Part shown: piece by piece, positions 8,699-58,640 of the stretch | Position numbering within the stretch: position 1 is the stretch's first letter | Layout of the letters: each line of letters opens with the position of its first letter | Made by a program: the position numbers and the translations under genes | Notes under the pieces: model-generated | The model's input: the letters and a program-made list of their open reading frames with translations, nothing else | Told to the model about the DNA's origin: nothing | Databases searched by the model: none | Assembly (NCBI RefSeq): GCF_004010195.1 | Contig: NC_057718.1 | Coordinates: forward strand, 38,979,143 to 39,043,142 | DNA length: 64,000 bases | Source of the DNA: Chiloscyllium plagiosum | Taxonomy: Eukaryota | Reading direction: 5' to 3'

Positions 8699-8868
8699 AG
8701 GAGAAAGTGAGGACTGCAGATGCTGGAGATCAGATTCGAGAGTGTGGCGCTAGAAAAGCACAGCAGGTCAGGCAGCATCTGAGGAGCAGGAGAATCAATG
8801 TTTCAGGCAAAAGCCTGATGAAGGCCCAAAACGTCGATTCTCCTGCTCCTTGGATACTGCCTAACCTA
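8699..8868. mobile_element. Short fold-back Penelope family-A element with defective hammerhead motif
   Basis: Family-A terminus followed by inverted arms around CTGATGAAGGCCCAAAACGTC (stem II collapsed, GAAA changed to AAAA). Confidence 0.75.
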
Positions 8869-9089
8869 TTGAAAAAGGCTGCCTGGTGTGATGAAGAGTT
8901 GAAAGTGAGGAAAATTAGTTTGGAAAAACTGTGTTAAATTGAAAAAAGGTAATTGCATTGGGATGAAAGCTGAAATGGCTGGAATATGCTGGGAAAAGGA
9001 GCTGAGCAAAAAAGAAGGTTGATGAACAATGGCAGACACTGTGGAGCATCTACAAAGCTGAGAGAATTGTGGTTAGCACTTATAGGGAG

Positions 9090-11180
9090 GTAGTTTCATC
9101 ACAGGCCAAAACCTGACGCTGAAAGACAATCTGTGACCACCAGGCAGGGTAAGAGCGTTAAGCACGTAGTGCAGAAGTCTTCTGTGACTATTTCCCCGAG
9201 AAAACAGATATTCTTTTTTGAGGGGAATGGCCTTTCAGGGGACAAAATGACAACAGCCAAATTTGTGACAGTTGGCTCTGCTACATAAGGGAGGAGCATG
9301 CAGTCATCATAGTGGATTCCATGGTAAGGGAAATAGGCATTTCTGTGGCAGCAAATGAGACTCTAGGATGGTGTGTTGCTTTTCTGATGATAGGATCAAG
9401 GTTGTGTGAGAGTGGCAGCAGGACACTTTGAAGAGAGAGGGTGAACAGCCAGTTGTTGTGGTATGCACTTCCTGCACACATGTTAGTCCTGGTCACTGAA
9501 AGTGTGCCCGGCTTCCCACGTACCACATGAGGAGCAAATCATGACTTTGAACTTTCCTGCCAAGACTCACTCCTTTAGATTAAACCTTCAAAAGGTGCTT
9601 AATATCAAATAGTATCAACTTATTTAGGGCCATTGTTTCTATAAAATACAGCATTAGAAACTTTTAACCAAACATCAATAGTATAGCTAAATAAAAGAGA
9701 TGCAGTCCTATTGGAATACAAAGAGATAAGAAGCAAGCTGAAAAGTAGGACCACGAAGGGTAGTGATCTAATGATTACTGCCATTGCAACATGCTAGTCA
9801 GAATAGAAATAGCAGGATATATTAAATTAACATGTAGCTAAAGAGATGGTGTGAGAGGGCAGGTTCAGATTCCTGGGACATTGGGACCAGTTCTGAGGGA
9901 TGAATTCACTGGGTTATAGCTGGGCCAGACTATGACTGAAGCCCTGTTTGCTAAGACAGTTAGGGACGGCTTAAACTAAATTGGCAGGGGAGTTGGAACC
10001 TATGCACAGAGCCAGAGGAAGAGGAATCGAGGACAACAAGAAAAGGCGGAAAGAGGAATAAGAGAAGTGAGGGGCAAAGGAATCAAAGTCTAGATTCAAA
10101 CAAGGCCATGGTTTTAAAAAAATTAGTGCGAATGGGGTCAAGATAAAAAGATAAGCCTTAAGGTTTTGTGCCTTAATGCACAGAGCATTTGAAACAAAAT
10201 AGATGTAAACAGATATGATATAGTTAGGATTACAGCAACATAGCTGCAGAATGACCAAGGATGGGAATTGAACATGGGTATTCAGTATTTAGGAAGGAGA
10301 GACAAAAGGGAAAAGGCGGTGGAGTTGCATTACTGGTTTAGGAGCATATAGTATATAATCTTAAGGAAAGATATTAGTTCAGTCAACGTATAATCTATGT
10401 GGGTAGAATTGAGAATTACCAAGGGGCAGAAAACATTAGTTAGGTGGTCTCTAGACCGCCAAGCTGTAGTGGTGATGTTGGGAATAATATTAAACAGGAA
10501 GTAAAAAATGTATGCAGGAGAGGAACATCTGTAATTTATGGTGGCTTTAAACTGCACATAGATTGGATGAATCAAATTTGTCACAATAACATAGAGGAGG
10601 ATTTCCTAGAGTGCATATGAAATGATTTTCAGGACCAATACATTGAGGAACTGGAGAACAGGTCACCTTAGAATGGTGTTATGCACTGAGAAAGAAATAA
10701 CTTGTCACACAGTTGTGAGAGACTCCGTGAGGGTGAATGACCATAATATGTTAGAATTCTTCATTGAGACGGAGAGTGAGGCAGTTGATTCTGAGATGAG
10801 CGAAACTACTGTGGTATGAGACATGAGTTTGCTATGGTGAATTGGGAAATGTTTCTGAAAGGAATGCCAGAGGATTGGTAATTGCAAGCATCCAAAGAAT
10901 GAATGGGTGAACTACAAAAATTGTTTATTACTGTTTGCAAAGAGAGCAGTGGCCAATCCATGGCTTATGAGACAAGTTAGAGATCATATTAGGTGCAAAA
11001 AAGAGACACCCAAATTGGCAAGAATGAACAATAAGACATGAGGATTGGGAACATTTTAGAAGTCAGCAAAGTATTACTACGGGATTGATTAAGAAGAGCA
11101 GAATAGAGCATGCGAGTTTGCTTGCAGGGAACATAAGAACTGACAGTAAGAGTTTTGATAGGTATGTAAAGAGAAGATTT
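9090..11180 (+). mobile_element. Old CR1 LINE: ORF1 esterase region and ORF2 endonuclease remnants
   Basis: AVIIVDSMVRE...DSRMVCCF (CR1 ORF1 GDS-like motif) and KVLCLNAQSI, FRKERQKGKGGGVALLV (APE domain); many stops and indels. Confidence 0.75.
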
Positions 11181-17839: not shown

Positions 17840-17934
17840 GAGGAGAAAGTGAGGTCTGCAGATGCTGGAGATCAAAGTTGAAACTTTATTGCTGGAACAG
17901 TACAGCAGGTCAGGCAGCATCCAGGGAACAGGAG

Positions 17935-17970
17935 ATTCGACGTTTCGGGCACAGGCCCTTCCTCAGGAAT
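17935..17970 (-). ncRNA. Minimal type-I hammerhead ribozyme motif (intact core)
   Basis: AUUC-CUGAGGA-A-GGGC(CUGU)GCCC-GAAAC-GUC-GAAU: stem I AUUC/GAAU, 4-bp stem II, palindromic ACGU stem III, GUC site. Confidence 0.8.
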
Positions 17971-18533
17971 GAGCAGAGAGTGTTCAGCAGGAGAAGATAA
18001 AAGGTAGGGAGGAGGGACTTGGAGGAGGGGCGTTGGAAATGTGATAGGTGGAAAGAGGGCAAGGTGAGGGTGATAGGTCGGAGTAGGATGGAGGCGGAGA
18101 GGCCAAGAAGAAGACTGCAGGTCAGGAAGGCGGTGCCGGGCTGGAGGGATCCGGCTGAGACAAGGTGGGGGGAGGGGGGATGAAGAAACTGGTGAAATCC
18201 AAGTTCATCCCCTGTGGTTGGAGGGTTCCCAGTCGGAAGATAAGACGCTCCTCCTCCGACCGCCGGGTTGTTGTGGTTTGGCGGTGGATGAGTCCAATGA
18301 CCTGCATATCCTCGGTGGAGTAGGAGGGGGAGTTGAAATGCTGTGCTACAGGGTGATTGGGTTGGTTCGTCCGGGTGGCCCAGAGGTGCTCTCTGAATCG
18401 CTCCGCAAGTAGGCGGCCTGTCTCCCCAATATAGAGGAGGCCACACCGGCTGCAGCGGATGCAGTAGATGATGTGGGTGGAGGTGCAAGTGAATCTGTGG
18501 CGGATATGGAAGTTTCCTTTGGGGACTTGGAGA

Positions 18534-19352
18534 NNNNNNNNNNNNNNNNNNNNNNNNNNNNNNNNNNNNNNNNNNNNNNNNNNNNNNNNNNNNNNNNNNN
18601 NNNNNNNNNNNNNNNNNNNNNNNNNNNNNNNNNNNNNNNNNNNNNNNNNNNNNNNNNNNNNNNNNNNNNNNNNNNNNNNNNNNNNNNNNNNNNNNNNNNN
18701 NNNNNNNNNNNNNNNNNNNNNNNNNNNNNNNNNNNNNNNNNNNNNNNNNNNNNNNNNNNNNNNNNNNNNNNNNNNNNNNNNNNNNNNNNNNNNNNNNNNN
18801 NNNNNNNNNNNNNNNNNNNNNNNNNNNNNNNNNNNNNNNNNNNNNNNNNNNNNNNNNNNNNNNNNNNNNNNNNNNNNNNNNNNNNNNNNNNNNNNNNNNN
18901 NNNNNNNNNNNNNNNNNNNNNNNNNNNNNNNNNNNNNNNNNNNNNNNNNNNNNNNNNNNNNNNNNNNNNNNNNNNNNNNNNNNNNNNNNNNNNNNNNNNN
19001 NNNNNNNNNNNNNNNNNNNNNNNNNNNNNNNNNNNNNNNNNNNNNNNNNNNNNNNNNNNNNNNNNNNNNNNNNNNNNNNNNNNNNNNNNNNNNNNNNNNN
19101 NNNNNNNNNNNNNNNNNNNNNNNNNNNNNNNNNNNNNNNNNNNNNNNNNNNNNNNNNNNNNNNNNNNNNNNNNNNNNNNNNNNNNNNNNNNNNNNNNNNN
19201 NNNNNNNNNNNNNNNNNNNNNNNNNNNNNNNNNNNNNNNNNNNNNNNNNNNNNNNNNNNNNNNNNNNNNNNNNNNNNNNNNNNNNNNNNNNNNNNNNNNN
19301 NNNNNNNNNNNNNNNNNNNNNNNNNNNNNNNNNNNNNNNNNNNNNNNNNNNN
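18534..19352. other. Assembly gap (819 N)
   Basis: Run of n characters. Confidence 1.
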
Positions 19353-19869
19353 AAGGGGAGGGAGGAGTCCGAGATTGTCCAGGTGAATTTGAGGTCGGGG
19401 TGGAAGGTGTTAGTGTAGTGGATGAACTGTTCAACCTCCTCGTGGGAGCACGAGGTAGGGCCGATACAGTCATCAATGTAGCGGAGGAAAAGATGGGGGG
19501 TGGGGCCAGTGTATTTGCGGAAGATGGATTGTTCCACATACCCTACGAAGAGGCAGGCATAGCTGGGGCCCATGCGGGTGCCCATGGCTACTCCTTTGTT
19601 TGGAGAAAGTGGGAGGATTGGAAAGAAAAGTTGTTCAGGGTGAGGACCAGTTCGGTCAGTCGAAGGAGGGTGTCGGTGGAAGGGTACTGGGTGGTACGGC
19701 GGGAAAGGAAGAAGCGGAGTGCTTTGAGTCCTTCGTGATGGGGGATGGAGGTGTACGGCGGGAAAGGAAGAAGCGGAGTGCTTTGAGTCCTTCGTGATGG
19801 GGGATGGAGGTGCTTTGAGTCCTTCGTGATGGGGGATGGAGGTGAACCCCACTGGTCCTCACCTACCAC

Positions 19870-20275: not shown

Positions 20276-20279
20276 GCAA

Positions 20280-28995: not shown

Positions 28996-29122
28996 TGTTT
29001 CCTTTGCCAAATTAAATATAAATAGGGGTGGTGTTTGCTGCATTAAAAGTAAGAAAGTAGCACACATTGTTTCGAACCAAGACGTTTGCTGAACAGGCAT
29101 AGTGTACAGCAGCTACTGTGAG

Positions 29123-29267
29123 TTTCCTGATGAATTTCCTGATGAAGGGCTTTTGTCCAAAAAGTCGATTTTCCTGCTCCTCGGATGCTGCCTGACCTCC
29201 TGTGCTTTTCCCGCACCACTCTAATCTTGATTCTAATCTCCAGCATCTGCAATACCCACTTCCACCT
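29123..29267 (+). mobile_element. Solo Penelope family-A terminal repeat with mutated hammerhead
   Basis: (tttcctgatgaa)x2 then GGGCTTTTGTCC-AAAAA-GTC (GAAAC lost), followed by the family-A 3' end. Confidence 0.75.
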
Positions 29268-29871
29268 AGCAGCTATTGTGGTCCATCTGGATCTAATAGC
29301 GTTCTGTAAGGTACCTATAAAGGTTTATTGTGTTCCAGAGACTCAGCAAGGGGGAAAATCCACATCGCAACTGTATAATTTGGAATAATACTGTTGCAGA
29401 AATAAAGCATAATTCATGTGCTTTGAATGTAAATTTCAGTTTCAGGAATATAATGTTTAGGTTGGGAATTAAAGTTTTATCAGTTTGGGGTCTTTGGGCA
29501 GGATTTTGGGTTGGTTAAGGTTCAGACAATAAGCTATAACAATGAACTTCTATTGTACTTGGTAAGAAATAGAATGATTATGTCAATTGCAAACATTTTT
29601 CTGGAGGGGTAAGATTTCCTCCTGACTGATTTGCAGCCAGAGTTCAGTCGATAGAATTAGCAAGAAAATTGAAGTTGGAGTTAATTGCAATTAAAAAGTA
29701 ACCTATATTTATCTCAAAGCCTGAGTTAAAATGCAAAACAATGGACAACCCATTTCAGGATCCTAGAGCTGGTTTGTCTCTCATTATCTCAATAAAAGAA
29801 GCTAAAAGCTACCAGTTTTGATAAGAAAAGCTATTTGATGCATCTGTGTGTCTTTGCTGATAGAAGGCCAG

Positions 29872-32840: not shown

Positions 32841-32841
32841 C

Positions 32842-33880
32842 AGAGTCATAGAGATGTACAGCATGGAAACAGACCCTTCGATCCAACCTTCCATGCCGAC
32901 TGGATATCGCAACCCATTCTAGTCCCACCTGCCAGCACCCAGCCCATATCCCTCCAAATCCTTCCTATTCATACACACATCCAGATGCCTTTTTAAATTC
33001 AAAATTTGGGTGAAGATTTGTAGCTCGGGTGCTCCTTGCTGTGGTTCTGTTCGCTGAGCTGGAAGGTTTTGTTGCAAACGTTTGGGGACAGGGGACGAAA
33101 CGTTTGCAACAAAAACTTCCAGCTCGGCGAACAGAACCACAGCCTTTTTAAATGTTACAATTGTACTAGCTGCTACCAGTTTCTGACAGCTCATTCCATA
33201 TACATACCACCCTTTGCATGAAAAGTTGTCTCTTAGGTCTCTTTTATATGTTTCCCCTCTCAGCCTGAACCTATGCCCTCTAGTTCTCCCAATCCAGGGA
33301 AAATACTTTGTTTATTTATCCTATCCATGCCTCTCATGAATTTATAAACCTCTATACGGTCACCCCTCAGCCTCTGATGCTCTAGGGAAAACAGCCCTAG
33401 CCTATTCAACCTCTCTCTCAAATCCTCCAACCCTGGCAACATCCTTGTAAATCTTTTCTGAACTCTTTCAAGTTTCACAATATCCTTCCGATAGGAAGGA
33501 GGCCAGAATTGCAGACAATATTCCTAACCAATGTCCTATACAGCTTCAACATGACCTCCCAACTCCTGTACCCAATATTCTGACCAATAAAGGAAAGCAT
33601 ACCAAATGCTGCCTTCACTATCTACCTGCGACTCCACTTTCAAGGAGCTATGAACCTGCACTCCAAGGTCTCTTTGTTCAGCAACACTCCCTAAGACCTT
33701 ACCATTAAGTGTATATGTCCTGCTAAGATTTGCTTTCCCAAAATGCAGCAATTTATCTAAATTAACATTTAGATTTATCACATTTATCTAAATTAAATTC
33801 CATCTGCCACTTCTCAGTCTATTGGCCTCTCTGATCAAGGTCACGTTGTAACCTGAGGTAACCGTCTTTGCAGTCTAGAA
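32842..33880 (-). mobile_element. CR1 3' fragment (younger family), interrupted by a Penelope mini-element
   Basis: KLERVQKRFTRMLPGLEDL...RLRGDRIEVYKFM; same family as 49672-51033. Confidence 0.9.
32999..33141. mobile_element. 143-bp fold-back Penelope family-B mini-insertion
   Basis: Matches the termini of the element at 44113-46437; ~45-bp inverted arms; 12-bp TSD gcctttttaaat (32987-32998, 33142-33153). Confidence 0.85.
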
Positions 33881-36952: not shown

Positions 36953-37098
36953 CTATAGTCTGTTGTTGTGTGATTTTTTGCCTGAAATGTTGGTTCTCCT
37001 GCTCCTCGGATGCTGCCTGATCTGCTGTGCTTTTCCAGTACCACACTCTTGATTTTTAACTTTGTCCACCTCAGTCCAACACCGGCACCTCCACATCA
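36953..37098 (+). mobile_element. Chimera of Penelope family-A terminus nested in family-C terminus
   Basis: gttgtgtgattttt [tttgcctgaaatgttggttctcctgctcc...accacactct] tgatttttaactttgtccacc...caccggcacctcc. Confidence 0.65.
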
Positions 37099-38159
37099 GG
37101 AATAAAGAAGGAGGACAGAAAAGAAAGAAAATACATATTTGGCTATCATCTGTTGTTTAAGGGTTTTGTGTGCAAATTAGCTGCTACATTTCTTATATTA
37201 GAATAGTTATATTTAGTAAGTACGTCATTGGTTGTAGATTGGGTGTCCCCAAGTCTCAAACAATGAAATAAATACTTGTTACATTTTTTTCGATCTTTTT
37301 TCTTTTGATTATTTTGTTTGGTTACAATACCCTAATTGGCATCTTCCCCAGTTTTCCTTTTTGTTGCTCTGATATTTTTAACGCTTGAAGATTTTTAAAA
37401 TGCCAGACTTTAAATATTCAATTAAAAATGTACCATCTTAAAGGGTGAGACTCTACAATTCAACAGAATCTGCAATTGGTTTAAGCCACACCACTGTTTG
37501 GTCTCCACATTATTTTTGAGAAATTGCACAATTAACTTACCTCAAAGCTTGACATGGTAATTGGTATTGTAAGCATAGTTTTAATGATGTGATAATATAG
37601 TCCATATTGATATGTCTAATCCAGAAACTGAGCTATTTAAACTGTGGAGTATCACTTCAGGCAGTAAACTGCTTTTAAACTTTACCTTGTCTTAAAGGTA
37701 GCCTGTCCCTCTTGGAAGTTGTACAGAATTTCAGGTGGCCACTACTGAATAGTATGGCAGCAATTAGGGGGAGAAGATGTCATAATTGTAATGTCATTAG
37801 GCTCGTAGTCAGGAGGCCAAGGATAATGCTCTGGAGGTATTGGTTTAAATCCACTGTATTGGGATTTAAATTCAATGAATAAATCTGAAACTGAAAGCTA
37901 GTCTCAGTAACAGTAACATGAAATTGTTAGTGATTGTTATCAAAACCCACATTTTAATTGTAGACTTAGTTATGTGATTGACTCTTAACTGCCCTCTGAA
38001 ATGGCCTAGCAAACCACTCACTTGGGTGACATGTTGTTCTTGCCAATGAAACGCATGTCCCATTAATGGATGATGTATAGAAGAGGAATTGGGCACCAGG
38101 CAGAAAGTGGGGTCCAGGTTGGTGAATGCAGTAGTGAATAGAAGAAGAGAAACCATGAT

Positions 38160-44112: not shown

Positions 44113-46437
44113 CAAAGTTTGTGAGAAGATTTGTAGCTCGGGTGCTCGTTGTTGTGGTTCTGTTCGCTGAGCTGGGAATTTTGTGTTGCAGGCATTTCGT
44201 CCCCTGTCTAGGTGACATCCTCAGTGCTTGGGAACCTCCTGTGAAGTGCTTCTGTGATGTTTCCTCCGGCATTTATAGCGGTTTGTCTCTGCCGCTTCCG
44301 GTTGTCAGTTCCAGCTGTCCGCTGCAGTGGCCAGTATATTGGGTCCAGGTTGATGTGTTTGTTGATAGAATCTGTGGATGAGTGCCATGCCTCTAGGAAT
44401 TCCCTGGCTGTTCTCTGTTTGGCTTGTCCTATAATAGTAGTGTTGTCACAGTCGAACTCATGTTGCTTGTCATCTGCGTGTGTGGCTACTCTGGTCGTGT
44501 TGTTTCGTGGCTAGTTGATGTTCATGGATACGGATCGTTAGCTGTCTTCCTGTTTGTCCTATGTAATGTTTTGTGCAGTCCTTGCATGGGATTTTGTACA
44601 TTATGTTGGTTTTGCTCATGCTGGGTATCGGGTCCTATGTCCTGGTAAGTTGTTGTCTGAGAGTGGCTGTTGGTTTGTGTGCTGTTATGAGTCCTAGTCG
44701 TCGTAGTAGTCTGGCTGTCAGTTCATAAATGTTCTTGATGTATGGTAACGTGGCTAGTCCTTTGGGTTGTGGCATGTCCTCATTCTGTTGTCTTTCCCTT
44801 AGGCATCTGTTGATGAAATTGCGGGGGTATCCGTTTTTGGCGAATACATTGTATAGGTGTTCTTCTTCCTCTTTTTGCAGTTCTGGTGTGCTGCAGTGTG
44901 TTGTGGCCCTTTTGAATAGTGTCTTGATGCAACTTCTTTTGTGTGTGTTGGGGTGGTTGCTTTCGTAATTCAGGACTTGGTCTGTGTGTATGGCTTTCTT
45001 GTATACCTTTGTGGTGAATTCTCTGTTCGGTGTTCTCCGTACCATCATGTCTAGGAATGGGAGTTGGTTGTCCTCTTCTACCTCTCTAGTGAATCTGATT
45101 CCTGTGAGTGTGGCGTTGATGATCCGGTGTGTGTTTTCTATTTCTGTGTTTTTAATGATTACAAAGGTGTCATCCACATATCTGCCCCAGAGTTTGGGTT
45201 GAATTTGCGGTAGGACTGTTTGTTCTAGTCTTCGCATTACAGCTTCTGCTATGAGTCCAAGGATGGGTGAGCTCATGGGTGTGCCGTTGATTTGTTCATA
45301 TATTTGGTTGTTGAATATGAAGTGTGTTGTGAGGCACAGGTCCAGTAGTTTGAGTATGCCGTCTTTGTTGATAGGCTCCCCGTCTTGTTGTCTGTTCTGT
45401 ATGTCCAGCAGGTTGGCTATTGTTTCTCTGGCTAGGGTATTTGTCGATAGAGGTGAACAGTGCCGTTACATCGAATGAGACCATAGTTTCTTCCTTGTCT
45501 ATGTGTATATTTCTGATGATGTCCAAGAATGCCTGTGTTGACTGTATCTAGTGTCTGGATCCGATGATCAGGTGTTTCAGTTTCTGTTGTAGTTCTTTAG
45601 CCAGTTTGTGTGATGGTGTCCCTGGTAGCGATAAGATGGGTCTGAGTGGTATGTCTGGTTTGTGCACTTTAGGTAGTCCATAGAATCTGGGGGTGGTGTT
45701 GCTTTCAGGTTTCATTCTCTGTTGGTCAAACCTGGTAATCTGTCCGTTTTTTTTGCAGGTTACTCAGTGTGTTGTTTATCCTATTGGTGAGCTGTGGAGT
45801 GGGGTCAAACTCCCTCTTTGGTAGGTGTTGGTATCTGCCAGTAGTTATTGCGCTTTCTAGATGTATTCTGCTTTGTCCAGGATGACCGTCGTTCTGCCTT
45901 TGTCTGCTGGTAGTATGATTATGTTCTTATCATTTCTTAGTGTTTTTAGTGCTTCCCTCTCCTTGGTGTTGAGGTTGTGTGTTTGTCTTTTCCTTGTTAT
46001 CAGGGGTATGATACTTTGTCTCATTGTTTGATGTGTCTCTTCTGTCAGTCCATTGTTTTTGAGTGTGCATTCTAGTACTGCTAGGAAGTCTGCTGTCTTG
46101 GTGTCCCTGTGGTTATAGTTGAGTCCCTTGGCCAGTATTGTTCTTTCCGTGTCTGAGGGAGAGGTTTCTAACCCAGGTATGTGTTGTGGCATGTGTAGAG
46201 GCATGGCACTCATCCACAGCTTCTATCAACAAACACATTGACCTGGACCCAATATACCGGCCACTGCAGCAGACAGCTGGAACTGACAACCGGAAGCGGC
46301 AGAGACAAACCGCTATAAATGCCGGAGGAAACAACACAGAAGCGCTTCACAGGAGGCTCCCAAGCACTGAGGATGTCACCTAGACAGGGGACGAAATGTC
46401 TGCAACACAAATTCCCAGCTCGGCGAACAGAACCACA
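44113..46437 (-). mobile_element. Near full-length Penelope-like element, family B, with inverted pseudo-LTRs
   Basis: ILPADKGRTTVIL, PRFYGLPKVHKPDIPLRPI, VSFDVTALFTSI, GTPMSSPI, RYVDDTF, YKIPCKDCTKHYIGQTGRQLTIRIHEH; ~245-bp inverted repeat 44152-44396/46196-46437; 11-bp TSD ataatattgat. Confidence 0.95.
46364..46403 (+). ncRNA. Minimal hammerhead motif in the family-B pseudo-LTR
   Basis: GCA-CUGAGGA-U-GUCACCU(AGAC)AGGGGAC-GAAA-UGUC-UGC. The inverted copy at 44188-44227 has GAAAUGCC (UH site lost). Confidence 0.65.
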
Positions 46438-47755
46438 ATAATATTGATGTCAAGGGCTGTGACTCTCACCTCACCTCTAGAATTCAGCTCTTTGTCCATA
46501 TTTGAACCAACGATGTAATGAGGTCAGGCGCTGAGTTGCCCTGCGAAATCTAAGCTGGATGTCACTGAGCAGGGTGTTGCTGAGCAGGTGCTGCTTGATA
46601 GCACTGTTGATGACATCTTCCATCACTTTACTGATAATTGAAACTAGACTGATGGGATAGTGATTGGCCAGGTTGGATTTGTCCTGCTTTTGATGTACAG
46701 TACATACTTGGGCAATTTTCCACATTGTTGGGGGTAAATGTCAGTGATGTAACTGTACTGGAAGAGCTTGGCTAGGGGTGCAGCAAGTTCTGGAGCACAA
46801 GTCTTCAGCACTATTGCCAGAAAGTTGTCAGGGCTCATAGCCTTTGAAGTACCTAGTGCCTCCAAGCATTTCTTGATATCACGTGGAGTGAATTGAATTG
46901 ACTGAAGACTGGTATTTGTAATGCTGGGAACCAGTGGAGGAAACAAAGATGGATCATCCACTCGAAACTTCTCGTTGAAGATTGCTGTGTAAGTTTCAGC
47001 TTTATCTTTTGCACTGAAGTGCTGGACTCTTCCATCATTGAGGGTGGGGCCTCCTCTAGTGAGTTGTTTAATTATCCAACACCAGTCCTGACTGGATGTG
47101 GCTGGACTTCAGGGATTAGATCTCTTCCATTGGTTGTGGGGTTGCTTAGCTCTATCACTTGCTGATTATGCTGTTGGGCATGCAAGTAGTCCTGTTTGGT
47201 GGCTTCATTGGGTTAGCACTTTATCTTAATGTATATCTAGTGCTGCTCCTGGCGTGCCCTTCTGCACTCTCCATTGAACCGAGCTTGATTGCCTGGCTTG
47301 ATGGTCATGGTTGAGTAGGGAATATGCCAGGTCATGAGGGTATAGATTGTGCTGGAGTACAATTCTGCTGTCTTTGATGGCCCACAATGCCTCATGGATG
47401 CCCAGTCTTGAGCCTGATGGCCTCCTCCAGACCCAAAAAGCTAATGCAGTCAAGTCATTCCATCTTTAGATCTATTCTGCTTTAACTGACCCCCCAATCA
47501 TGATCTAGAACTTCAACACTTTCACTGCCTATACAACCTCTCTTATGTTTTGATTGCACCTATCTGCTATTGTACTTTGGATTTGTGAAACAGACTTCTC
47601 ACTCAAAGGCCTATAAAGGAACTCCTGCTCCTGCCTGTGGATAGTTTTACTAACAGAGCTGCTGTTCTTTTTCTTTAAATGTGCTGTATGTTACATTCAT
47701 CTATCTTCGCGCCACCTTCGCACATTAACTTTAGATGCTGTTAAATTCAGAATGA

Positions 47756-47944
47756 TTTGGAGATGCCGGTGTTGGACTGGGGTGTACAAAGTTAAAAATC
47801 ACACAACACCAGGTCATAGTCCAACAGGTTTAATTGGAAGCACACTAGCTTTCGGAGCGACACTCCTTCATCACTGTCACCTGAAAGCTAGTGTGCTTCC
47901 AATTAAACCTGTTGGACTATGACCTGGTGTTGTGTGATTTTTAA
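47756..47944. mobile_element. Fold-back family-C element (probably Penelope-derived) with perfect 62-bp arms and hammerhead remnants
   Basis: Arms 47792-47853 / 47883-47944 are identical in reverse complement; flanking duplication ttaaattcagaatga (47741-47755, 47941-47955). Confidence 0.85.
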
Positions 47945-49671
47945 ATTCAGAATGAGGAGACATAGTTTAAGATTAAGAGGTTTCTTTTGTAAGATGGACA
48001 TCAGGAGAAATTATTTCTTTGAGGAGAAGCTTTTTTTTATGTTGTGAGTCTATGGAAATCACTTCAACAGACAGCAGGAGAGGAGGGTTATTAAATATGT
48101 TGATGGCCGAAGTGGATAGATTCTTGATTAACAAAGGAGTCAGGATTAGGTACGAAAGTGGATTTGAGGCCACAGTTGATCAGCAGATATAACCTTATTG
48201 AATATGGGACTAGGCCTGAGGGGTCAAATGGCCTAATCCTGTTCCTAATTAATTTGAAATGTTATATTATAATATTTGGGAAATCAATTCTTTTTTCCAC
48301 ATGATGAAAAGTCTTCATCCTTCCAAACCACAAAAGGATTTGGTTAAAATCCAGGTCCACCAGTCAGCCTTGAAGTAATTCACTTACTCCATCCCTTACA
48401 GTGATACAGGAGTCAAAAGTAACTTGGCCGGGTTATTTCTTAACATTTTTATCCTTAAAAAAAATGGAAAATGCACCAAATAAACCAAATTCTGTATGCA
48501 TATTTAATGTTTGTTTAGAAAATATTTATTTCACTTTTAGCTAGTAACTATTGCATCTTCTGAAGTATCTTTGTTTCTGTTCACTCCTGCAGATGAAAGT
48601 TGTCTCACGTATTTCAGTATAGTGATTTGTTTTCAAATGTTGTGGTCTTTATTTGAAATGCCAGGTGTTTTGGAGATCTGCAACTTATTTTCTGAAACTT
48701 TTCATTATCTTTTCCTTTCTTATAAAATAGGAAAATAGGTGGCAATTTTCTGAGCGCAAACTTCTGTTGAGAATCCTGCCTCCCGGGGGCACATATGGTA
48801 AAAATTAAAAAAACTTCACAGGCAGAGTTCCTTTGATCTTGCACTATTTGCTTCCACAGGGAAGGACCGAACATTCAGAAAATTAGCTCCATTGTCAGCT
48901 GTTGAAGAGTCCTCTTCTCCACTGTGAGCTTTTCCATGGTGATAACCCTCTCTAAAGGTCTTCATAGCTCATTGTAATGGTAACTACTTGGCTCTGACAA
49001 ATAAATCATTTGTAGGAGTCCTTGATCTGGAAAATTATATTTTTGTATTTATCTCCCAAAATCCTTTTGTTTTAATTGAAGAGGGTTGATTTCTTTTCAA
49101 GTATTTCCAGATCAGGTATGCCAGATGGAAAGTAAAGTTCCCTCTATTTTGCCTGATGATGTGACTTTGATCTTTTTCCAAGACAGAAGTTTTTTTTAAT
49201 GCATTGGTGTAAATTTTCCCATATCTCTTGCCAATCTTTTTCATGGCTTCCCTAATAGCTCTTATAAAATTGACATTGATATCAAGCATATCATTGAAGG
49301 CTTTTTAGTCCGCTATATTTAGTTAGCCAATGTTACTGAAAGCACCACAATCCTGTTTGGGATGGAATTCTGCTTATTGGCCCTGAAAGGAAAGGACTTT
49401 TTGCTACCAGTGTGGATGCTGTGCATGAGGACTGACTTTTAAAAAATTACAGAAATTGTACACTTGCTTAAAATTAAGCTCATTTTGCTGCTACATTAAA
49501 TTGTTTGCTCTAAGTATGTATTGAAGTAACATTGAGTTTTTTGGTACGAAGGGAACAGGCATAGAATTGGAAACTACATTCACTGGAAATTATTCATTAA
49601 TACAAATGGATTTTAATTGAATAAGATTACCAAAACTAAAAACAGATAAAGTGCCACAAAATGTCAACACT

Positions 49672-51033: not shown

Positions 51034-51269
51034 AAATCTACATGCACCTGTGGAGTGGGAAAAAGCATTAAAATTTCTGCTGGATGACTGTTCCTGAATA
51101 TTTTCATATTTCCTGTTTTTTATTCTGGATCTCTACCATCTTCTGTGTTTTGTTTGGTGGTAGTGTGTAATTTACTGCTGCTTCTCTTTCTGAATGCGCA
51201 CCTTGAAGTTCTCTTCTGTCTGGAGTGATTTCTGTTTCTCACTTTTACATTGTTTACTTTCATTATTTG

Positions 51270-52390
51270 AAGTTTCCCCTCAAGTGTTTGACCAGGTAGT
51301 CACTAATACTCCCTTTCACAGCTGTATCTTCCTCAGCAAGTTGAAGGTAGTGGACTGGGTATCAATCAGACAGGCTGATTTGTCCTGGTGAATGTTAAAC
51401 TTCTCGAGTTTTACTGGTGGTGCGCTAGACGAAAGGAGATTATTCCATTACACGCCATGCTTGTGCTTTGCAGGTGATGATCAGGCTTTGTGGTTGGAGT
51501 CGAGAGAAGAGTAAGCAGAGTTCACAGCTGCTGATATCTTATAGCCACAATTTTATAGGGCTGATCCAGTTCACTTTTTGGTCACGGTAATCTGCAGAAT
51601 GTTGATAGTGGGCAATTCAGTAATGCAAATGCCATTGAATGTCAAGTGGTAATGGTTAGATTCTCTCTTGTTGGAAATGAACATGGCCTGACATGAATGT
51701 TACTTGCCACTTATCAGCCCCCTGCTGGATATTTTCCAGGTCTTGTGTGTAGACATCATCTGCTTCACTATTTGAGGAGCTGTAAAAGGTGCTGAACATC
51801 ATGCAATCATCAGCAAACATCCCCACCTCTGACCTTACAATAGAGGGAAAGTATTTGATGAAACAGCTAAAATGCTTAGGCTAAGGATTCTTACACTGAA
51901 ATCCTGGGACTAACCTGATTGACTGCCAGCAACCACTAGCACCTTTCTTTATATTGGGTATGACTCCAACTAATGGAGAGCTTTCCTGATTCCCATTGAC
52001 TCAGCTCTTTGATGCTGCATTCAGTCAAATGTGATCTTGGTGTCCAGACATGCCACTCTTACCTCACTTCTGGAGTTCAGCTGTTCTGTCCATGTTTGAA
52101 CTAACCATAATGAGTTGAGGCATCCTGGTGGAACGCAAACCGAACAAAAATGAGAAATTGCTGCTCTTCCATTACTTTGCCAGTGATCAAGGGTAGACTG
52201 ATAAAGCAGTTGTCTTTTTTTTAATTCATTCATGTGATCTGGCTGTCACAGTCTGGACAAGAATTTATTGCCATTTCTGTTGCCTTTGAGAAGATGATAG
52301 TGAGCTATCATCTTGAACTACTGCAGTCCATTGGTGTAGGCACATACTCAATGTCATGGGAAATAAGGTTACAGGACTTTGACCCAAATT
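51270..52390 (-). mobile_element. Degraded L2/CR1-group LINE fragments
   Basis: Colinear with 43350-44100, plus a 3' UTR-like piece at about 52215-52390. Confidence 0.7.
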
Positions 52391-53650
52391 CTGCTCAATA
52401 AGCAAAGTATCAGGAAGATATTCCTTCAATATTCCTCTCTCAGTCTTGATATTTCTCCATCTGAAGAAGACCACAGCCTAATGAGGACTGTTCTTGCCTT
52501 GGCACACCCACTAGTATACACTATTCCTAGGGGTTGGTTGTTTACCCTATGTTAATCACTTGTTTAAATTGCTTTAACTAATGATCACAAGGCAAATAGC
52601 TAAAGTGTCACCACTCTCCCAACCATCACTTTATCGTAAGGTCACCTTTTCATTGACCTCATGCTGGGAGCCATTTGTTAGTCTGTATGAGACATTTGTA
52701 TAAATAATAGGTTGCAAGATGCCATGCTGTTAACTTAGGAATATCAATATTGCAACCTGAACCAGGAGATCACAATATTTCTAGTGAGTGTTTGTACTTT
52801 TCCAGAGAAAAGAGCAAGTTTCTCTGCTAAGTGACTTTATCCTATGACAAAATTCCATAGGAATTCTGTAATTCCAAAAACTACCATTCCAGATGTGTAA
52901 ACTGCTAACAAGACTGAATCTAGTCTTCTGTGTTGATTTTAAACACAAGTTGACAAAATCAAAAATGGATAAATTCCTTGACATAATATAAACTTTTCCC
53001 AGTAGAATCTGTGGTCTTTATATAAAAATAGCAATTTGGATGTTTATTTGTGAAGTTATCTATTTTCAGAGTTAATTGGGATACATATAAGAAATCTTCT
53101 TAATTAGTCCCTAATCACTTAAGTACTTTTCCATTTATGTAAAAGGGTATTGCACTATGGAGCATTCATTTATTTAGAATGTTTTGAATATCTATGTGTG
53201 CAGTGAAAATCACACTGCAGAACTTTAATTTTGTAGGCCTGATAGTAACCTATGATGGGACTGTGACACGCTGGCTGAGGGCTGGGAAAATGGTGGCGTT
53301 GGTGATGGTGGAGGGAGCGGTTGTGAGGTCCAGTGTGGGTCAAGGCCATTTAACTCCCAAATTTCATTTAACTTAGCGACGCAAGATCGAAGGGCAAAAA
53401 TGGTGGAAGGCTCAAAGGGGGTCAGGAATATAGCAGTTAGCAGCTGACTATCTATTAATTACCCAGTTTTGCTATTCACGGAAGGCAGGCAGGATTAAAA
53501 GTGGAATTGTTTTTCAGATATCAGCAAGGGTGGGGTTTCATTCAGTTTTGTTCCTATGCATGTACTTCCACAGTATTATATAGAAGAGATATGTTTCAAT
53601 CTAACCTCCTAATGTTGTGTTTGTTATTTTTTGATTTCTTATTTCTGCAG

Positions 53651-53852
53651 GTATATTTATATTCCTTTGGGAGGTTCACGGCATGGCATACTACGGATCA
53701 TGTTCTCTTCTGCCGTGGCCTTTAGCTTTGTCTGCTACTGGCATGGTGGCCATAGCTTCATGCTAAATTGGGCAGCTTTGAATTGGGCTGGAGTAATGTT
53801 AGAAAGCATACTGAAGATGATCTGTTCCATTTCACCTGTTCAGGAGATTATT
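53651..53852 (+). CDS. HHAT: Internal coding exon of hedgehog acyltransferase (MBOAT family) containing the catalytic histidine
   Basis: Polypyrimidine tract plus ttctgcAG acceptor (53649-53650) and GTAAGT donor (53853). Translates (R)YIYIPLGGSRHGILRIMFSSAVAFSFVCYWHGGHSFMLNWAALNWAGVMLESILKMICSISPVQEII, matching vertebrate HHAT RYVYIPVGGSQHG...FVSYWHGG...WAALNWLGV as I recall it. His codon at 53742-53744; HHATL has Leu at this position. Confidence 0.95.
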
Positions 53853-54546
53853 GTAAGTGCCAGTTTTATATATCCTGTTGGAAACCTTTACAATACTTTG
53901 TTTCTCATTGTCAATGAATGCTGAGAGTGGAGGATTGTAGTAGATTACAAAACCAACATCCTTATATTGCTGGTTCAATTCCATCTTAAAGGACTCTGAA
54001 TCGTTTACCATCTTGTGTCACAGTGATAGAGTCCCAAGCTCTGGGCTCGACAATTTGGCTTCAAGTTCCACCTGTCCCAGAGGTCTGTCCACATGTCTGA
54101 ACAGGTTGGATAAAATTTATCATCTTTAAATTATAAATTAAATTGTGAAATGTTTTGAAAGTCCCACATAGGTGCTTCAAGTCCACATCAATATGGAAAA
54201 AGATAGCTAATTAATCAATCTTTTTCCATATTAATGGTTTATAAAATGTAATTTATGAAAAGATAATTGTAAGCCACATTGCAAACTGATGATTATTGCT
54301 CCTTGCTGTTCAAGCCTGATGCTCATTAAATGAAAGTGGAAGATTTTCTTAGTCTTCAGCTGAGCACTTGAAATTTTAATTTCAAATTTATATATGCAAT
54401 GAAAATTTAATTTAGCTGAAGTGTATACCCAGTAGGTTTAATTAGTATAACTTGTGAATAGAAATTAAAGAATGATGGGAAACAGATAATGATTTTGTAT
54501 TTGCATGTAATTTTCTTTTTGTTCTGTAAAATATCCTAAGCTAGAG

Positions 54547-54709
54547 TTGTGCTGTCAAGGTGCCGGTGTTGAAGTGGGGTGGGCAAAGTTAAAAATCACA
54601 CACCACCAGGATACTGTTCCACAGCTACCAGATGAAGGAGCAGTGCTGTGAAAGCTCGTACTTCCAAATAAACCTGTTGGACTATAACCTGGTGCTGTGT
54701 GATTTTTAA
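54547..54709. mobile_element. Family-C fold-back element with degenerate hammerhead
   Basis: 11-bp TSD ctaagctagag (54536-54546, 54710-54720); UAC-CAGAUGA-A-GGAGC(AGU)GCUGU-GAAA-GCUC-GUA at 54626-54660. Confidence 0.8.
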
Positions 54710-57700
54710 CTAAGCTAGAGCCTACATGTTCCTCTCATTATTAACTGAAAATAACCAAAACAGTATTGTTTGTTTGGCACATCCTTAGTTCATTACTTTC
54801 AAAGCAATTCTTTATCATTAAATTCCTAGTTGAAGAGAAAAAAAAGTAATATTTTGAGTTTTTGAGTTCATCCAGGACAAATATATAAATTGATCTATAA
54901 ATAAAATGATTGTATATTTATTACCCTAAATCCTGTATCTTCAGATCAAACAAGTAAAGACTTTTTAAAAGGATTTTTAAAAAATAATTTAGGTTTCAAT
55001 GATTTCCTCAAATATATAGGGTGGAAGTTATAGTATTCTATATTTAAACAGGAAATTGACTTGACTAATTGACTCAGATATGCAGTATTGTTCATTGGAA
55101 TTTCTTTCCATTGATAAAAATGTAACTGATTAAGTACTTGGCCTTTTAAAATGTACTGCATAGGCTACCACTGATTGTGTATATTTTTCCTATAGTTTGG
55201 CTTCACTTGGGAAATTCCAGTACCTTGTCAACATTTGGTACTTTTTTTTCCAGAATCTCGGTGACTGCTCTTAAATTCTTTGTTTAATTGTATGATTTTC
55301 CCTTTTTAATATCGTAATTTATATAGCAAACTGGGTGTTTAGTTTCTAACTGCCATTTATCACTTTTCCAAATTGGCATAAATTACACAATGATCAGCAT
55401 GCATTTGCTATATTCCTTCTCAGTGACTCATCAGTTAAAATAGTTAATCATTTTTTTTTTGTTGTTAAAACATATACAAATTTTATAAGTGAAACACAAT
55501 ACCAATCAGTAAATGATTCAACTTGAGATCCACCTACATGTAACATATTCATAATTTGATCATCTATATGTAATTGATTCAGTTCACTCATTTTAAAAAT
55601 AAAATGAAAGAAAAATGTATGTGCTATATCCCTACATTTTACATTAGAGATTCAGGTATCCACTTGTTTCCTATTGTGGGAAAAAGGAACATAGTTATGA
55701 CAGTACATTATAAGTGTGCAATTGCCTGTGTTAAATTAACCTGCTGTGGGAACAGGCAGAGGGATACCATTAAATTAAAATAGAACTATGTCAATATTGC
55801 TGGAGACAAAAGTTAGTCCTTCTGAGATTTCTTTGGTACTTAATGCAGTAAATGAAATAAATGTAATTACCTGTTCATGAATAATATATCCACTGTACTT
55901 TTTGAGCATTTACCCCGAAAATGCAAGCTTTCATCAGTCAATTTCCAGATTGTCCACTATAACTATTCATTATTCTTGTAATTTGTTTTGTTACTTGGCA
56001 GTCTGAATTTCCACAAACAATATAAAGTGACTAACCTGTTTCATAGAATACAGTTTTTATCTGAACATGTCTCATGAAGTAATGAAATGCCAGATTTTTG
56101 AAAGCAGCTATAGTAATACACTACCAATTCAAATAAAACTGCATACAAACTAGTTCTATCATGTATTTATATTTGTCTGGATAAACCATACATTGCAGGG
56201 CAATAACAACATTTTTTAAATCAAACAGTTGACACTTATTGTAGTTCTGGGAATTTCAGAAATTCTGATGTGAAATACAAATTCAACAGGACCAATACTA
56301 AATGCAAAGTATCCTCAAACCTGGAGGTTTTGATTTGCCTTTGTCAGGCTGCTTTCATGTCTGTTTTCAGTTGCCATTATGTTCCTTGAATAATAAATTA
56401 ATTACTGTTGGGCAAGCTAAAGAAATACATTTCAAAACATCTTCACAATGCTACACAGTGACCCAAAAAAAATCAGAACTGTCTCACAAGTGAGTGGCCT
56501 GGTCTGCTATGCTGTTTTGATCTTGAGATATTTGATAAGTGGAATGTATAGTCTGCCTCTGTAACATTTTTATAATGGACTGTCACCATCACTTTAGCAA
56601 TTAATTAAGAAATAGTATTACTTAATGTAATAGGTTTTTTAAAAATTGCAGAGAATACATTAATTGAAGTTTTATTCATTTTATTTTTTATTAATTTTTT
56701 CACTGATGTCACTGACAAATGCCTTCGAAAAAATGAGCATTGTATTCCCTGCTCCTGAGGAATCAAGATAAATTTGCAGCAGTGCTGCATGCTTAGACGT
56801 GTCCTCCATAATACTGAATCAGGTGTTTGAGTAAACTGGAAAAATAAATACTAGTCTTCTATCAAAATGAAGAATTTCCAGTATAATTTATAGCAGGAGC
56901 CTCCATATATTAGTTTAGCCAATAAGATGTCTTTCCTCGTAACTATGTGTTTTTTGTAAATGTTGTAAATGCAGTAAAGAATAATTAAAGCTCCATATAT
57001 TTATTTTTTAGTTCATCAGAAACTTGAACTTCATTCAGAGGAAATAATTCTGAAAGGATTACATTTTGCTTACTGCATGAAAATGCTAGTCAGGAGGGTT
57101 TCCTTAATGGCTTAATTGATAAATAGGTTGTTTGGGATGATACTGCCATGTTCATAGATTCATACAGCACAGAAAAGGGCCTTCGGCCCATCGAATCTGT
57201 ACTGACATAACTATCAGTAAAAGTGCACAAATCCCAATTTCCTGCACTAGTCCCATATCCTTGGACAACAGTTTTAGTTCCCTATCACAAGCTACTTTAG
57301 CTAGTTTAGTGTTCTCATGTTCCTGATTCCCTAGGCAATATATATGAACTTTAGTTGGTCTCAGGGTGTCTGAGCAGTGTTTATGAGCTGCAGTTAGGTC
57401 TCAGACTGTTCAAAATGGAAAAGGAAAATTGAACAGTGTTGCTAGTCACTATCCAGTGATGCTGATCTGTATATATGAAATAAGGAAAGGCTAGGATTTG
57501 ATGATGTTTTTCCATCCTGCGGTCAAATATCCTGATGAGAAAGCATAAAAGGATGCCCAGCACCCTGAAACTATATCCTGACTTGGTTCTGGGTGAAGAG
57601 AAAATGTTTTAAAGTAGGTAAGTGCAGCAGACCAAAATAAATTGTAATGCACTAAAAAAAGTTGAAGGAACAGTAATAAACATTCCAATCACATGCTCCT

Positions 57701-58167
57701 TATAAAGCCTTTATTGACCTGTTCACTAAAATAACACTAACTAGATGCAGCTGTTCTATAAATAATGCCATGACATTAAATAGAAAAATAAGATCGTAAC
57801 CCATGTTTAATCAATGTTTATTTTGTAATCATGAATGATTTTTGTGTGACAATGTTTTTGAATCAGAGAATAGTGTGCTACATGGTGATTGGAATATTAA
57901 ATGATACTAAATAGATGTTACTTTCTTAATATTTGCCTGAGTAACAAAAGACAGCAAGGATGAAAAAGAGGAAGGGTTAATTTTACGCTTTTCAAAAACT
58001 GAAAAGCAATTTAACCCTTTGAACTTAACAAATGGATTTTCCCAAAATACTATATTTCAATTTTGTACACTCTGTGCAGGATTATGTCAGTATTTACTCA
58101 CTGAAATAGATTTTATGAATGCTTGGACACCCATAAATTGATGTGAAATGCTAGAACTAAAATGGAT

Positions 58168-58640
58168 CTGAAGTTTTGGATGTAGGTTTGCTCGCTGAAC
58201 TGGAAGGTTCATTTCCAGATGTTTCATCACCCTACTAGGTAACATCTTCAGTGGGCCTCCGGTGATGTCATTTCCCGTGGTGATGTCACTTGCTGTCCTT
58301 TTTCTCGGGGGGTGGTAGGTAGAGTCTAACTTGATGTGTTTGTTGATAGAGTTCCAGTTAGAATGCTATGCTTCTAGGAATTCTCGTGCGTATCTCTGTT
58401 TGGCTTGTTCTAGGATGGCTGTGTTGACCCAGTCGAAGTTGTGTCCTTCCTTATCTGTATGTAAGGATACTAATGAGAGAGGGTCATGTCGTTTTGTGTT
58501 GATGTTCATGTATCCTGGTGTCTAGTTTTCTGCCTGTTTGTCCAATGTAGTATTAGTTAACAGTTCTTGCACGGTATTTTGTAAATGACATTAGTTTTGT
58601 TTGTTGTCTGTATAGGATCTTTCAAGTTCATTAGCTGCTG
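58168..58640 (-). mobile_element. 3' fragment of a Penelope-like element (family-B relative) with GIY-YIG remnant and hammerhead motif
   Basis: KTNVIYKIPCKNC..YIGQTGRKLDTRIHEHQ; CCA-CUGAAGA-U-GUUACC(UAGUAG)GGUGAU-GAAA-CAUC-UGG at 58215-58254. Confidence 0.85.

Follow-up and report, generated by a model that had tools for sequence, protein, structure and literature searches.

Short Penelope insertions near an HHAT exon of a bamboo-shark-type genome are probably one-off, truncated PLE copies with decayed hammerhead motifs

Background

EN+ PLEs leave insertion units that, in the accessible parts of two studies, have an inverted pLTR, a tail on one arm and a TSD of 8-10 bp (PMC3846280; PMC8557442). 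In vitro, nicking and extension take place on both strands, the tail is bounded by two RT start sites, and uncleaved RNA is the main substrate (PMC11167929). PLEs are also known to be associated with hammerheads. The available sections of one survey report mostly single motifs from truncated PLEs, and already note opposite-strand pairs 100-700 bp apart (PMC4209133).

The origin of the inverted arms and the one-sided tail is unsettled, with self-priming put forward in 2013 and two internal RT start sites demonstrated in vitro in 2024. A genome rich in short two-armed insertions makes the two-nick, two-start-site model testable by counting alone. We describe such insertions here, adding shark PLE families to the known PLE-hammerhead association.

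Results

PLE copies and the host gene

The window is the whole 64,000-nt stretch of DNA that was analysed. It contains six short inserts that are PLE terminal pieces near an HHAT exon in a bamboo-shark-type genome. This internal coding exon (53651-53852, plus strand) is bounded by AG/GT and belongs to the MBOAT family, and its 67 aa match a protein named Chiloscyllium plagiosum HHAT with 100% identity. We looked for a second HHAT exon within the window and found none. A 6-residue HHAT match at 39459 is likely due to chance, given that about one is expected and that stops close the frame on both sides. The initial annotation had placed the inserts inside one host gene. One internal HHAT exon is indeed present, but because it is the single one in the window, the distant inserts are only presumably intronic. 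A Pfam search of all 412 stop-free frames of at least 52 aa gave one MBOAT match (the host), one GIY-YIG match, five LINE-type RT matches and some weak sub-threshold ones.

We assigned the following copies to families A to D.

1..74, plus strand: tailed 3′ end of a family A copy, cut by the window edge.
2104..2266: family D fold-back, overlooked by the initial annotation; shorter arm on the minus strand, arm with 43 extra 3′ nt on the plus strand; TSD of 10 bp (2094-2103 / 2267-2276).
8699..8865: family A fold-back; tailed arm on the minus strand (117 nt, starting in stem II); plus-strand arm ending 68 nt short, with 7 nt deleted from stem II and G12>A; arms 81% alike; TSD of 15 bp with one mismatch (8684-8698 / 8866-8880).
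17841..19860 (end approximate), minus strand: 5′-truncated family A coding copy with an RT motif and GIY-YIG; a search for a TSD found none.
29121..29267, plus strand: single tailed arm of family A, not a fold-back, whose 5′ junction carries a 12-nt tandem duplication; hammerhead with G12>A and a broken palindrome; TSD of 13 bp with one mismatch (29108-29120 / 29268-29280).
32999..33141: family B fold-back; tailed arm on the minus strand (85 nt), tailless arm on the plus strand; arms 95.5% alike, CUGAnGA absent from both; TSD of 12 bp (32987-32998 / 33142-33153).
36953..37099, plus strand: tailed family C fragment, split by a family A fragment (~36976-37052); 5′ half of the hammerhead missing; 11-bp repeat (36907-36917 / 37100-37110) whose left copy is 35 bp left of position 36953.
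44113..46437: family B coding insertion; 2078-nt tailed arm on the minus strand (RT, GIY-YIG, terminal repeat), a 5-nt spacer, then a 242-nt tailless arm on the plus strand (46196-46437); TSD of 11 bp (44102-44112 / 46438-46448).
47756..47944: family C fold-back; tailed arm on the minus strand from U4, with C3 missing where the arms meet; tailless arm on the plus strand beginning in stem II; arms 97% alike; TSD of 15 bp (47741-47755 / 47941-47955), with a 4-nt overlap with the arm end.
54547..54709: family C fold-back with a junction unlike that at 47756; tailed arm on the minus strand stopping downstream of the hammerhead; tailless arm on the plus strand spanning the hammerhead, with U4>A and a disrupted stem II; arms 82% alike; TSD of 11 bp (54536-54546 / 54710-54720).
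58165..58620, minus strand: divergent, 5′-truncated B-like copy with a GIY-YIG remnant; a search for a TSD found none.
63650..63745, minus strand: second family D fragment.

Family D is probably of PLE origin, judging from the anatomy of 2104..2266 and a weak likeness to family A.

Anatomy of the insertions

Self-BLAST and alignments confirmed that all six short intervals named by the initial annotation consist of PLE terminal-repeat sequence. That several are inverted pairs holds for four of them. Alignment of the arms ruled out fold-backs at 29123, which is a single arm, and at 36953, where a family A fragment is nested in a family C fragment. TSDs had been claimed for three inserts and are more common than that: five of the six have a TSD of 11-15 bp at their boundaries. 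Over the window, a TSD of 10-15 bp flanks seven of the ten intervals tested, compared with 2 of 3000 random intervals of matching sizes. The 11-bp repeat around the split family C fragment may, tentatively, represent its TSD, with ~35 bp of filler in between.

There are six inverted insertions in the window: the four named ones, 2104-2266 and the 2.3-kb RT/EN element. In every one, the arms are head-to-head with their 3′ ends directed at the TSDs, and one arm is longer at its 3′ end (by 68, 41, 36, 42, 43 and 40 nt). The tailless arm has 11-53 nt of 5′ sequence that is missing from the tailed arm in four cases (8699 of family A, 32999 of B, 54547 of C and 2104 of D), so that neither arm simply copies the other. 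This extra sequence aligns to its own family in the A, B and C cases. In the family C fold-back at 47756 and the long family B copy, the tailless arm is contained within the tailed arm. The tailed arm is on the minus strand in five of the six, a bias that is within chance.

The 143-bp family B insert and the 2.3-kb coding insertion share both their tailed and their tailless end. Their junctions differ, lying 85/96 versus 2078/283 nt from the tailed end, and the junctions of the two family C fold-backs also differ (118/~107 versus ~77/~123 nt). In family A, the asymmetry is 68 nt in the fold-back and a separate fragment ends ~35 nt short. These positions disagree, so there is no single inner site in family A. 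The short inserts are all within a narrow size range (143-189 bp).

Coding partners

As initially annotated, coding elements for families A (17841-~19860) and B (44113-46437) occur in the window. In both families, the terminal sequence runs into an ORF with RT and, at the C terminus, a GIY-YIG domain. The family A copy has a Pfam GIY-YIG match (E 4e-5) and an RT motif read by eye; Pfam gave no RT match in this copy, which has an 819-bp N gap (18534-19352) that includes the RT-EN linker. The family B element shares 79-83% identity with an RT protein of Chiloscyllium punctatum. Its ORF takes the first 53 aa from the terminal repeat plus tail and has its AUG where stem II begins, and the cut site is 28 nt past the start codon. 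From the appearance of their motifs, family B may be Poseidon and family A may be Neptune. A coding partner for family C or D was not found in the window.

Hammerhead motifs

Most of the inserts had been thought to carry whole or partial hammerheads. A scan for CUGAnGA-stem II-GAAA finds no whole hammerhead in any of the six short inserts, whose cores are partial or mutated. Its four matches (17966, 44224, 46367 and 58251) are all in longer copies, and only that at 17966 retains the palindrome. No other minimal hammerhead in the window is fully intact; this one has C3 at 17966 and a cut site after 17939. By its sequence it appears to be a min-HHR, having CUGAnGA, the extra base, stem II, GAAA-palindrome-UH and a short stem I. 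Both hammerheads of the family B coding insertion are mutated in the palindrome, and that of the B-like copy (C3 at 58251) has a broken one. The family B read consensus regains the palindrome at the family level, as does protein P0016. The assignment of stem III to ACGU in families A and B and AGCU in family C proved correct, with these sequences following GAA in the respective copies.

The loose CUGAnGA-stem II-GAAA pattern is not above chance (shuffle mean 0.75, maximum 6), but the pattern with UH and stem I added is (three observed versus none in 100 shuffles). Rfam, run in E-value mode, reported no hammerhead. Its six matches, all to miRNA-hairpin models below the gathering score, were rejected as generic hairpin matches. 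This lack of a hammerhead match is not evidence against minimal hammerheads.

Nine of the 15 arm 5′ ends are inside a hammerhead span of ~35 nt, from the cut site to 4 nt upstream of C3. Compared with random truncation at decay lengths of 100-500 nt, this clustering has a P of 3e-4 to 3e-8, in a post hoc test that counts both arms of an insertion although these are not independent. Truncation is thus not random for the short class. None of the 15 ends is between 130 and 282 nt, and none is at the cut site. The clustering suggests either that RT ran off the RNA 5′ end or that it stalled at stem II.

Family B in related species and RNA data

We summed the contig depth of family B in three DNA-type runs from three related species. 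Depth, which does not equal copy number and comes from contigs that break in repeats, falls from the 3′ end in all three runs, by 10- to 31-fold over 2 kb, with decay lengths of 470, 516 and 612 nt (R2 0.96, 0.92 and 0.75). There is no step at the hammerhead in these runs, where the ratio of the first bin to the upstream bins is 0.95, 0.96 and 1.18. Copies share the tailed end as their insertion point, next to flanks that are AT-rich and unlike one another (240-270 contigs per DNA run, agreement 0.36-0.37). Of 333 joints, each of the 15 with the best support is private to one run, with one or two contigs and a depth of 37-445, compared with 0.5-2 million at the family B 3′ end.

The tailless end is not among the 24 loose ends listed of 3947 in the DNA runs, and support for two fixed start sites therefore comes only from the window. 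Private variants of the reference copy may hide this end. Loose-end peaks at 44180/44181 and 44490/44491 are private indels of that copy, and a peak at 44091 belongs to a flanking LINE-type repeat.

In one RNA run, 1308 of ~13 million reads match, just 15 of them at no less than 99% identity and the others at the family level. The ~9:1 strand bias at the 3′ end may reflect the library chemistry or oligo-dT priming on the A-rich strand, and counts neither way. A search for RNA runs containing 52200-58100 gave none. There is no pile-up of read ends in this fragmented single-cell library, which is not able to show self-cleavage. A 19-nt family A motif found at 48 metagenome loci was dropped as chance or unrelated, since no match to the window exceeds 42 nt.

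Discussion

The short inserts are best seen as ordinary dead-on-arrival PLE debris with decayed ribozyme motifs, and not as a new self-copying mini-element. Most probably, they are one-off 5′-truncated insertions by autonomous EN+ PLEs with two-nick priming, each with a junction made anew. Of the two readings that the initial annotation offered, truncation plus inversion is favored by an anatomy like that of the coding family B copy, by junctions that are private, both within the window and for the family B joints with most support, and by the smooth 5′ decay of family B. Unique junctions, the sign of independent truncation named by the initial annotation, were seen in every comparison made.

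We propose that three or four autonomous endonuclease-positive PLE families inserted at different times. The GIY-YIG endonuclease would make staggered nicks 10-15 bp apart, a spacing indicated by the TSDs, and reverse transcription of uncleaved element RNA would most likely start from both nicks. One nick would use the outer RT start site and the other the inner one, apparently ~35-45 nt apart (68 nt in the family A case). Both cDNAs would end early and be joined head-to-head via short filler or microhomology, with a new junction each time, giving a hairpin in which one arm has the tail and the other lacks it. The hammerhead would be a passenger that is 80-125 nt away from the 3′ end and is thus reached by every short arm. 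The copies would later have decayed, often at CpG sites, and neither self-cleavage nor spread would be expected of them.

The short size could be set by the template, if RT starts at the internal sites of the 5′ terminal-repeat copy, at the pLTR-ORF junction, and then either stalls at stem II or runs off the RNA 5′ end close to the hammerhead. This is a refinement of the preferred explanation rather than a replacement, and we consider it quite possible, if slightly less than evenly balanced. It would account for the nine ends at the hammerhead and the empty interval at 130-282 nt. RT also initiates internally in pLTR-ORF junction RNA in vitro (PMC11167929), and the family B terminal repeat doubles as the ORF start, so that full-length RNA carries RT start sites near its 5′ end too. 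However, family B depth has no step at the hammerhead, the nine ends are scattered over ~35 nt rather than falling on one base, and the sample is small and was picked for shortness. Somewhat less likely is a fuller reading, in which each nick primes its own cDNA from a different one of the two RT start sites, with many products being run-offs from the 5′ terminal repeat that stop at the RNA start beside the hammerhead; that family A or C also used a short dedicated template RNA is less likely still. Self-priming or snap-back synthesis on the cDNA or an antisense template, with one priming event, was proposed for head-to-head PLE inversions in the accessible text of PMC3846280, and would fit the two insertions whose tailless arm is within the tailed arm. 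It is nevertheless unlikely here: the tailless arm reaches further 5′ in four of six inversions, which would require later trimming, and both strands are nicked and extended in vitro (PMC11167929).

The other reading initially offered, a non-autonomous ribozyme-bearing mini-PLE or retrozyme-like class mobilized in trans, now seems very unlikely, also in the form of a short hairpin or monomer RNA from one or a few master loci, most plausibly of family A or C. The narrow size range, the 5′ ends at the hammerhead and the absence of a coding family C partner from the window would suit it, and non-autonomous PLE derivatives are described in the available parts of two reports (PMC8557442; bioRxiv 10.64898/2026.07.22.740005). 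By contrast, a replicating fold-back family would have the same junction at many loci, and no two fold-backs in the window share one: the family B and C pairs have unique junctions, and the best 15 of 333 family B joints are private. No arm starts at the cut site, none of the six inserts has an intact core, and no tandem array covers the short inserts among the six TRF rows. In predicted folds, the arms at 8699 (A), 32999 (B) and 47756 (C) would pair into a single long hairpin, in which the sequence after GAAA is buried. It is also highly improbable that the hairpins are assembly artefacts or longer palindromic insertions whose center was later deleted. Long palindromes are unstable, and there are small deletions or rearrangements near the center at 8699 (7 nt) and 47756, but the arms differ by 3-20%, unlike assembly duplications, the TSDs are intact, and the one-sided tail and hammerhead clustering would be left unexplained. 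If the fuller reading with run-off products is true, mapping arm ends across the genome would reveal where transcription starts, where the two RT start sites lie and how the nicks are arranged, for several families at once.

Comparison with known elements

Non-LTR retrozymes (Cervera and de la Pena 2020, PMC7229834; Li et al. bioRxiv 10.64898/2026.07.22.740005), as portrayed in the accessible parts of these sources, share with the shark inserts a non-coding nature, a type I hammerhead and a derivation from or relationship to PLE terminal repeats. In the same portions, they are tandemly repeated head-to-tail, consecutive units each have a complete ribozyme, and circular RNA is produced. The shark inserts are instead head-to-head or single and lack an intact core: neither the six TRF rows nor the six cores (none complete) reveal head-to-tail units with at least two complete hammerheads.

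The min-HHRs of metazoan PLEs (Cervera and de la Pena 2014, PMC4209133) are closer. In the available text, they share a short stem I, an extra base between A9 and G10.1, and palindromic positions 15-16 without a true helix III. Sharks are not named among the hosts in its results and discussion, and the cores of the shark short inserts differ in being only partial or mutated.

The insertion units of canonical EN+ PLEs, as far as the accessible text of Arkhipova et al. 2013 (PMC3846280) and Craig et al. 2021 (PMC8557442) goes, share the head-to-head inverted 5′-truncated arm, a one-sided tail of 30-40 bp and a short TSD, and with family B a terminal repeat that overlaps the ORF start. The shark short inserts differ in having no coding body left in their arms, in TSDs of 10-15 rather than 8-10 bp and in the 68-nt asymmetry of the family A fold-back.

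PAc, the Poseidon of Anolis carolinensis (Frangieh et al. 2024, PMC11167929), has an ORF that starts at hammerhead stem II, as in shark family B. Its start site is no different between the strands, unlike in our proposal, and the available main text does not feature short head-to-head products. Its tail lies between two internal RT start sites, its targets are AT-rich and its template is uncleaved RNA, which matches the AT-rich flanks seen for shark family B and the start sites and template proposed here. The cut site follows the start codon by 26 nt in PAc and 28 nt in family B, and the tailed end is 111-118 nt and 106 nt within the ORF, respectively.

Short insertions, coding partners and genomic setting

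The short insertions are real and mostly ordinary, and we regard them as probably truncation-plus-inversion products of Penelope-like element (PLE) integration. Sequence comparison bore out the PLE terminal-repeat identity that the initial annotation had proposed for six intervals, beginning at 8699, 29121, 32999, 36953, 47756 and 54547. Five of these have their own target-site duplications (TSDs) of 11–15 bp, where three had been claimed (comparable repeats flank 2 of 3000 random intervals). The proposed fold-back form holds for 8699, 32999, 47756 and 54547 (4/6); the other two intervals differ, and a further fold-back lies elsewhere. Features newly described are:

29121–29267: single family A arm, not a fold-back
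36953–37099: family A fragment nested inside a family C fragment
2104–2266: fifth short fold-back, family D, 10-bp TSD
53651–53852, + strand: HHAT internal exon, AG and GT bounded

Short family D repeats occur at 2104–2266 and 63650–63745, with a weak likeness to the family A end and a decayed stem-loop as the sole remnant at the expected hammerhead site. To the left of this nested insert, the filler at 36907–36952 includes a short stretch in which the flanking 11-bp repeat recurs inverted, as though the target site had served as template.

Coding partners for families A and B are present in the window, as annotated. The A copy (17841–~19860) has a GIY-YIG domain (Pfam, E 4e-5) and an RT motif read by eye only; the B insertion (44113–46437) shares 79–83% identity with an RT protein of C. 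punctatum. No coding partner for C or D was found in the window. Perfect tandem duplications of 59 and 32 bp at the 5′ junction of the A copy (19694–19847) resemble a 12-nt duplication at 29123, and may stem from template slips as the junction formed, or from misassembly.

The window consists of vertebrate sequence rich in repeats. Among all 412 stop-free frames, MBOAT at 53613–53921 is the sole host domain (Pfam). The 67 residues encoded by the HHAT exon match a protein annotated as Chiloscyllium plagiosum HHAT at 100% identity, so the inserts are probably intronic. Placement in one host gene stands as far as this exon; no further HHAT exon was found in the window, and we infer the extent of the gene.

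Other repeats are also arranged in inverted form. The arms at 34956–35162 and 36153–36359 (207 nt, 97%, AT-rich, 990 nt apart) match nothing else in the window and no protein; candidate origins are a young MITE-like element, local inverted duplication or misassembly. Two LINE-type RT fragments abut in inverted orientation at 60467–60729, forming a 263-bp imperfect palindrome (77%) at which no TSD was found. An inverted repeat of 39–57 nt, 500 nt apart, within another LINE-type repeat (26012–26620) resembles 5′ inversion. Small near-perfect AT-rich palindromes at 54186–54236 (19-bp arms) and 32392–32420 (29 bp) are unrelated to the PLE families.

Hammerhead motifs

The annotated stem III palindromes, ACGU in A and B and AGCU in C, were confirmed. 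A scan for CUGAnGA-stem II-GAAA gave four matches, all in longer copies, with the palindrome kept only at 17966 in the coding A copy. On its own, this loose pattern does not exceed what shuffled sequence can give (mean 0.75, up to 6). When UH and stem I are also required, the window has three, versus none in 100 shuffles. The initial annotation saw whole or partial motifs in most short inserts. Partial or mutated remnants do occur, and a whole core was found in none of the six. CUGAnGA is absent from both arms of 32999, the tailed (3′-longer) arm of 8699, the A fragment in 36953 and the tailless arm of 47756, whose tailed arm lost C3 at the junction. G12 is A in 8699 and 29121, while 54547 has U4>A and a broken stem II. 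At the family level, the B palindrome is preserved in the read consensus and in the protein P0016. In predicted host-strand folds the two arms would pair as a single hairpin (−44 to −127 kcal/mol); in three of the four fold-backs among the six intervals, the sequence following GAAA would be buried in it.

Junctions, truncation and integration

Both 3′ ends point outward to the TSD in all six inverted insertions, and one arm exceeds the other at its 3′ end by 68 nt (A), 41 and 40 nt (B), 36 and 42 nt (C) or 43 nt (D). The B insert of 143 bp and the coding one of 2.3 kb stop at identical positions at both ends, which makes the short inserts the smallest members of a single series. The two arms of an insertion are 80 to 97% identical, so the insertion events differ in age.

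A replicating family should share junctions, and none are shared in the window: arm reach from the tailed end is 85/96 versus 2078/283 nt in the B pair and 118/~107 versus ~77/~123 in the C pair. For family B the survey also took in four of the 24 listed runs, one of RNA and three from as many organisms, whose contigs were placed on 44050–46190 at 80% likeness, which misses subfamilies under 80% alike. Depth drops 10- to 31-fold toward the 5′ end (decay lengths 470–612 nt) and crosses the hammerhead without a step. At 44112, the tailed end is joined to AT-rich, unlike flanks in 240–270 contigs per DNA run. Were there a B hairpin of high copy number and constant junction, its joint would be expected at the top of the list of joints. 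The best 15 of 333 (10 strand switches and 5 skips) are all differently placed, each confined to one run and 1–2 contigs, at depths of 37–445 versus 0.5–2 million at the family B 3′ end, given that contigs break in repeats and depth is not copy number. The family B tailless end was absent among 24 of 3947 loose ends, and a search of metagenome contigs for extra family A copies gave nothing usable. A replicating mini-element, the other reading originally offered, is very unlikely, given junctions that are private in the window and among the best-supported family B joints, and the failure of all six short inserts to pass the hammerhead scan; common PLE anatomy, private junctions and graded B truncation support truncation plus inversion.

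In X21, a poly(A) single-cell library, family B reads at 44122–44265 fall ~9:1 on one strand and are densest at the terminal repeat, which may reflect sense transcription or oligo-dT priming on an A-rich strand.

One result speaks against purely random truncation: 9 of 15 arm 5′ ends (A 4/5, B 2/5, C 3/5) lie in the stretch that runs from the cut site to 4 nt upstream of C3. Under exponential decay of 100–500 nt, P is 3e-4 to 3e-8, in a post hoc test that omitted the D arms and a cut copy at the window edge and treated singly arms that are not independent within one insertion. Run-off could account for the clustering: the terminal repeat doubles as the ORF start, so RT start sites also lie close to the 5′ end of full-length RNA, and starts there would yield short cDNAs ending near the hammerhead. 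RT stalling at stem II is an alternative. As family B depth lacks a step there, the effect may be specific to A and C. None of the 15 arms begins at the cut site, consistent with uncleaved templates.

The TSDs record staggered cuts, alongside two outward 3′ ends and a one-sided tail; each nick probably primes its own cDNA. Self-priming, proposed in PMC3846280, could instead produce the inverted arm, and still fits the C insert at 47756 and the long B copy. In 4/6 inversions, however, the tailless arm has 11–53 nt of additional 5′ sequence relative to the tailed arm, yet has no tail, so neither simply duplicates its partner. What merits counting across the genome is the combination of run-off and two-nick priming.

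Comparison with known systems

Within a literature search mostly outside subscription papers and repeat databases, and so weak, we found no account of these shark PLE families and no statement of two-nick, two-start-site priming for PLE inversions. Retrozymes, as described in PMC7229834 and bioRxiv 10.64898/2026.07.22.740005 (whose supplements include one cartilaginous fish), are head-to-tail units with complete ribozymes. The short inserts failed this comparison: fold-back arms are inverted, and all six inserts lack a complete core. The window motifs fit the minimal PLE hammerhead of Cervera and de la Pena 2014 (PMC4209133), with a short stem I, an extra base after A9 and a palindrome. That paper describes mostly single motifs, probably from truncated PLEs, and certain pairs 100–700 bp apart on opposite strands.

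PMC11167929 shows nicking and extension of both strands by purified PLE protein, with RT starting on uncleaved RNA at two internal sites bounding the tail. Family B is close to that element: stem II begins with an AUG, and the terminal repeat and tail together correspond to residues 1–53 of P0016. PMC3846280 (adjoining inverted pLTR, 31-bp tail on one arm, 9-bp TSD) and PMC8557442 (30–40-bp tail, frequently at one end only) describe the same anatomy as our inversions, which behave like canonical EN+ PLE insertions and, for families A and B, are such insertions.
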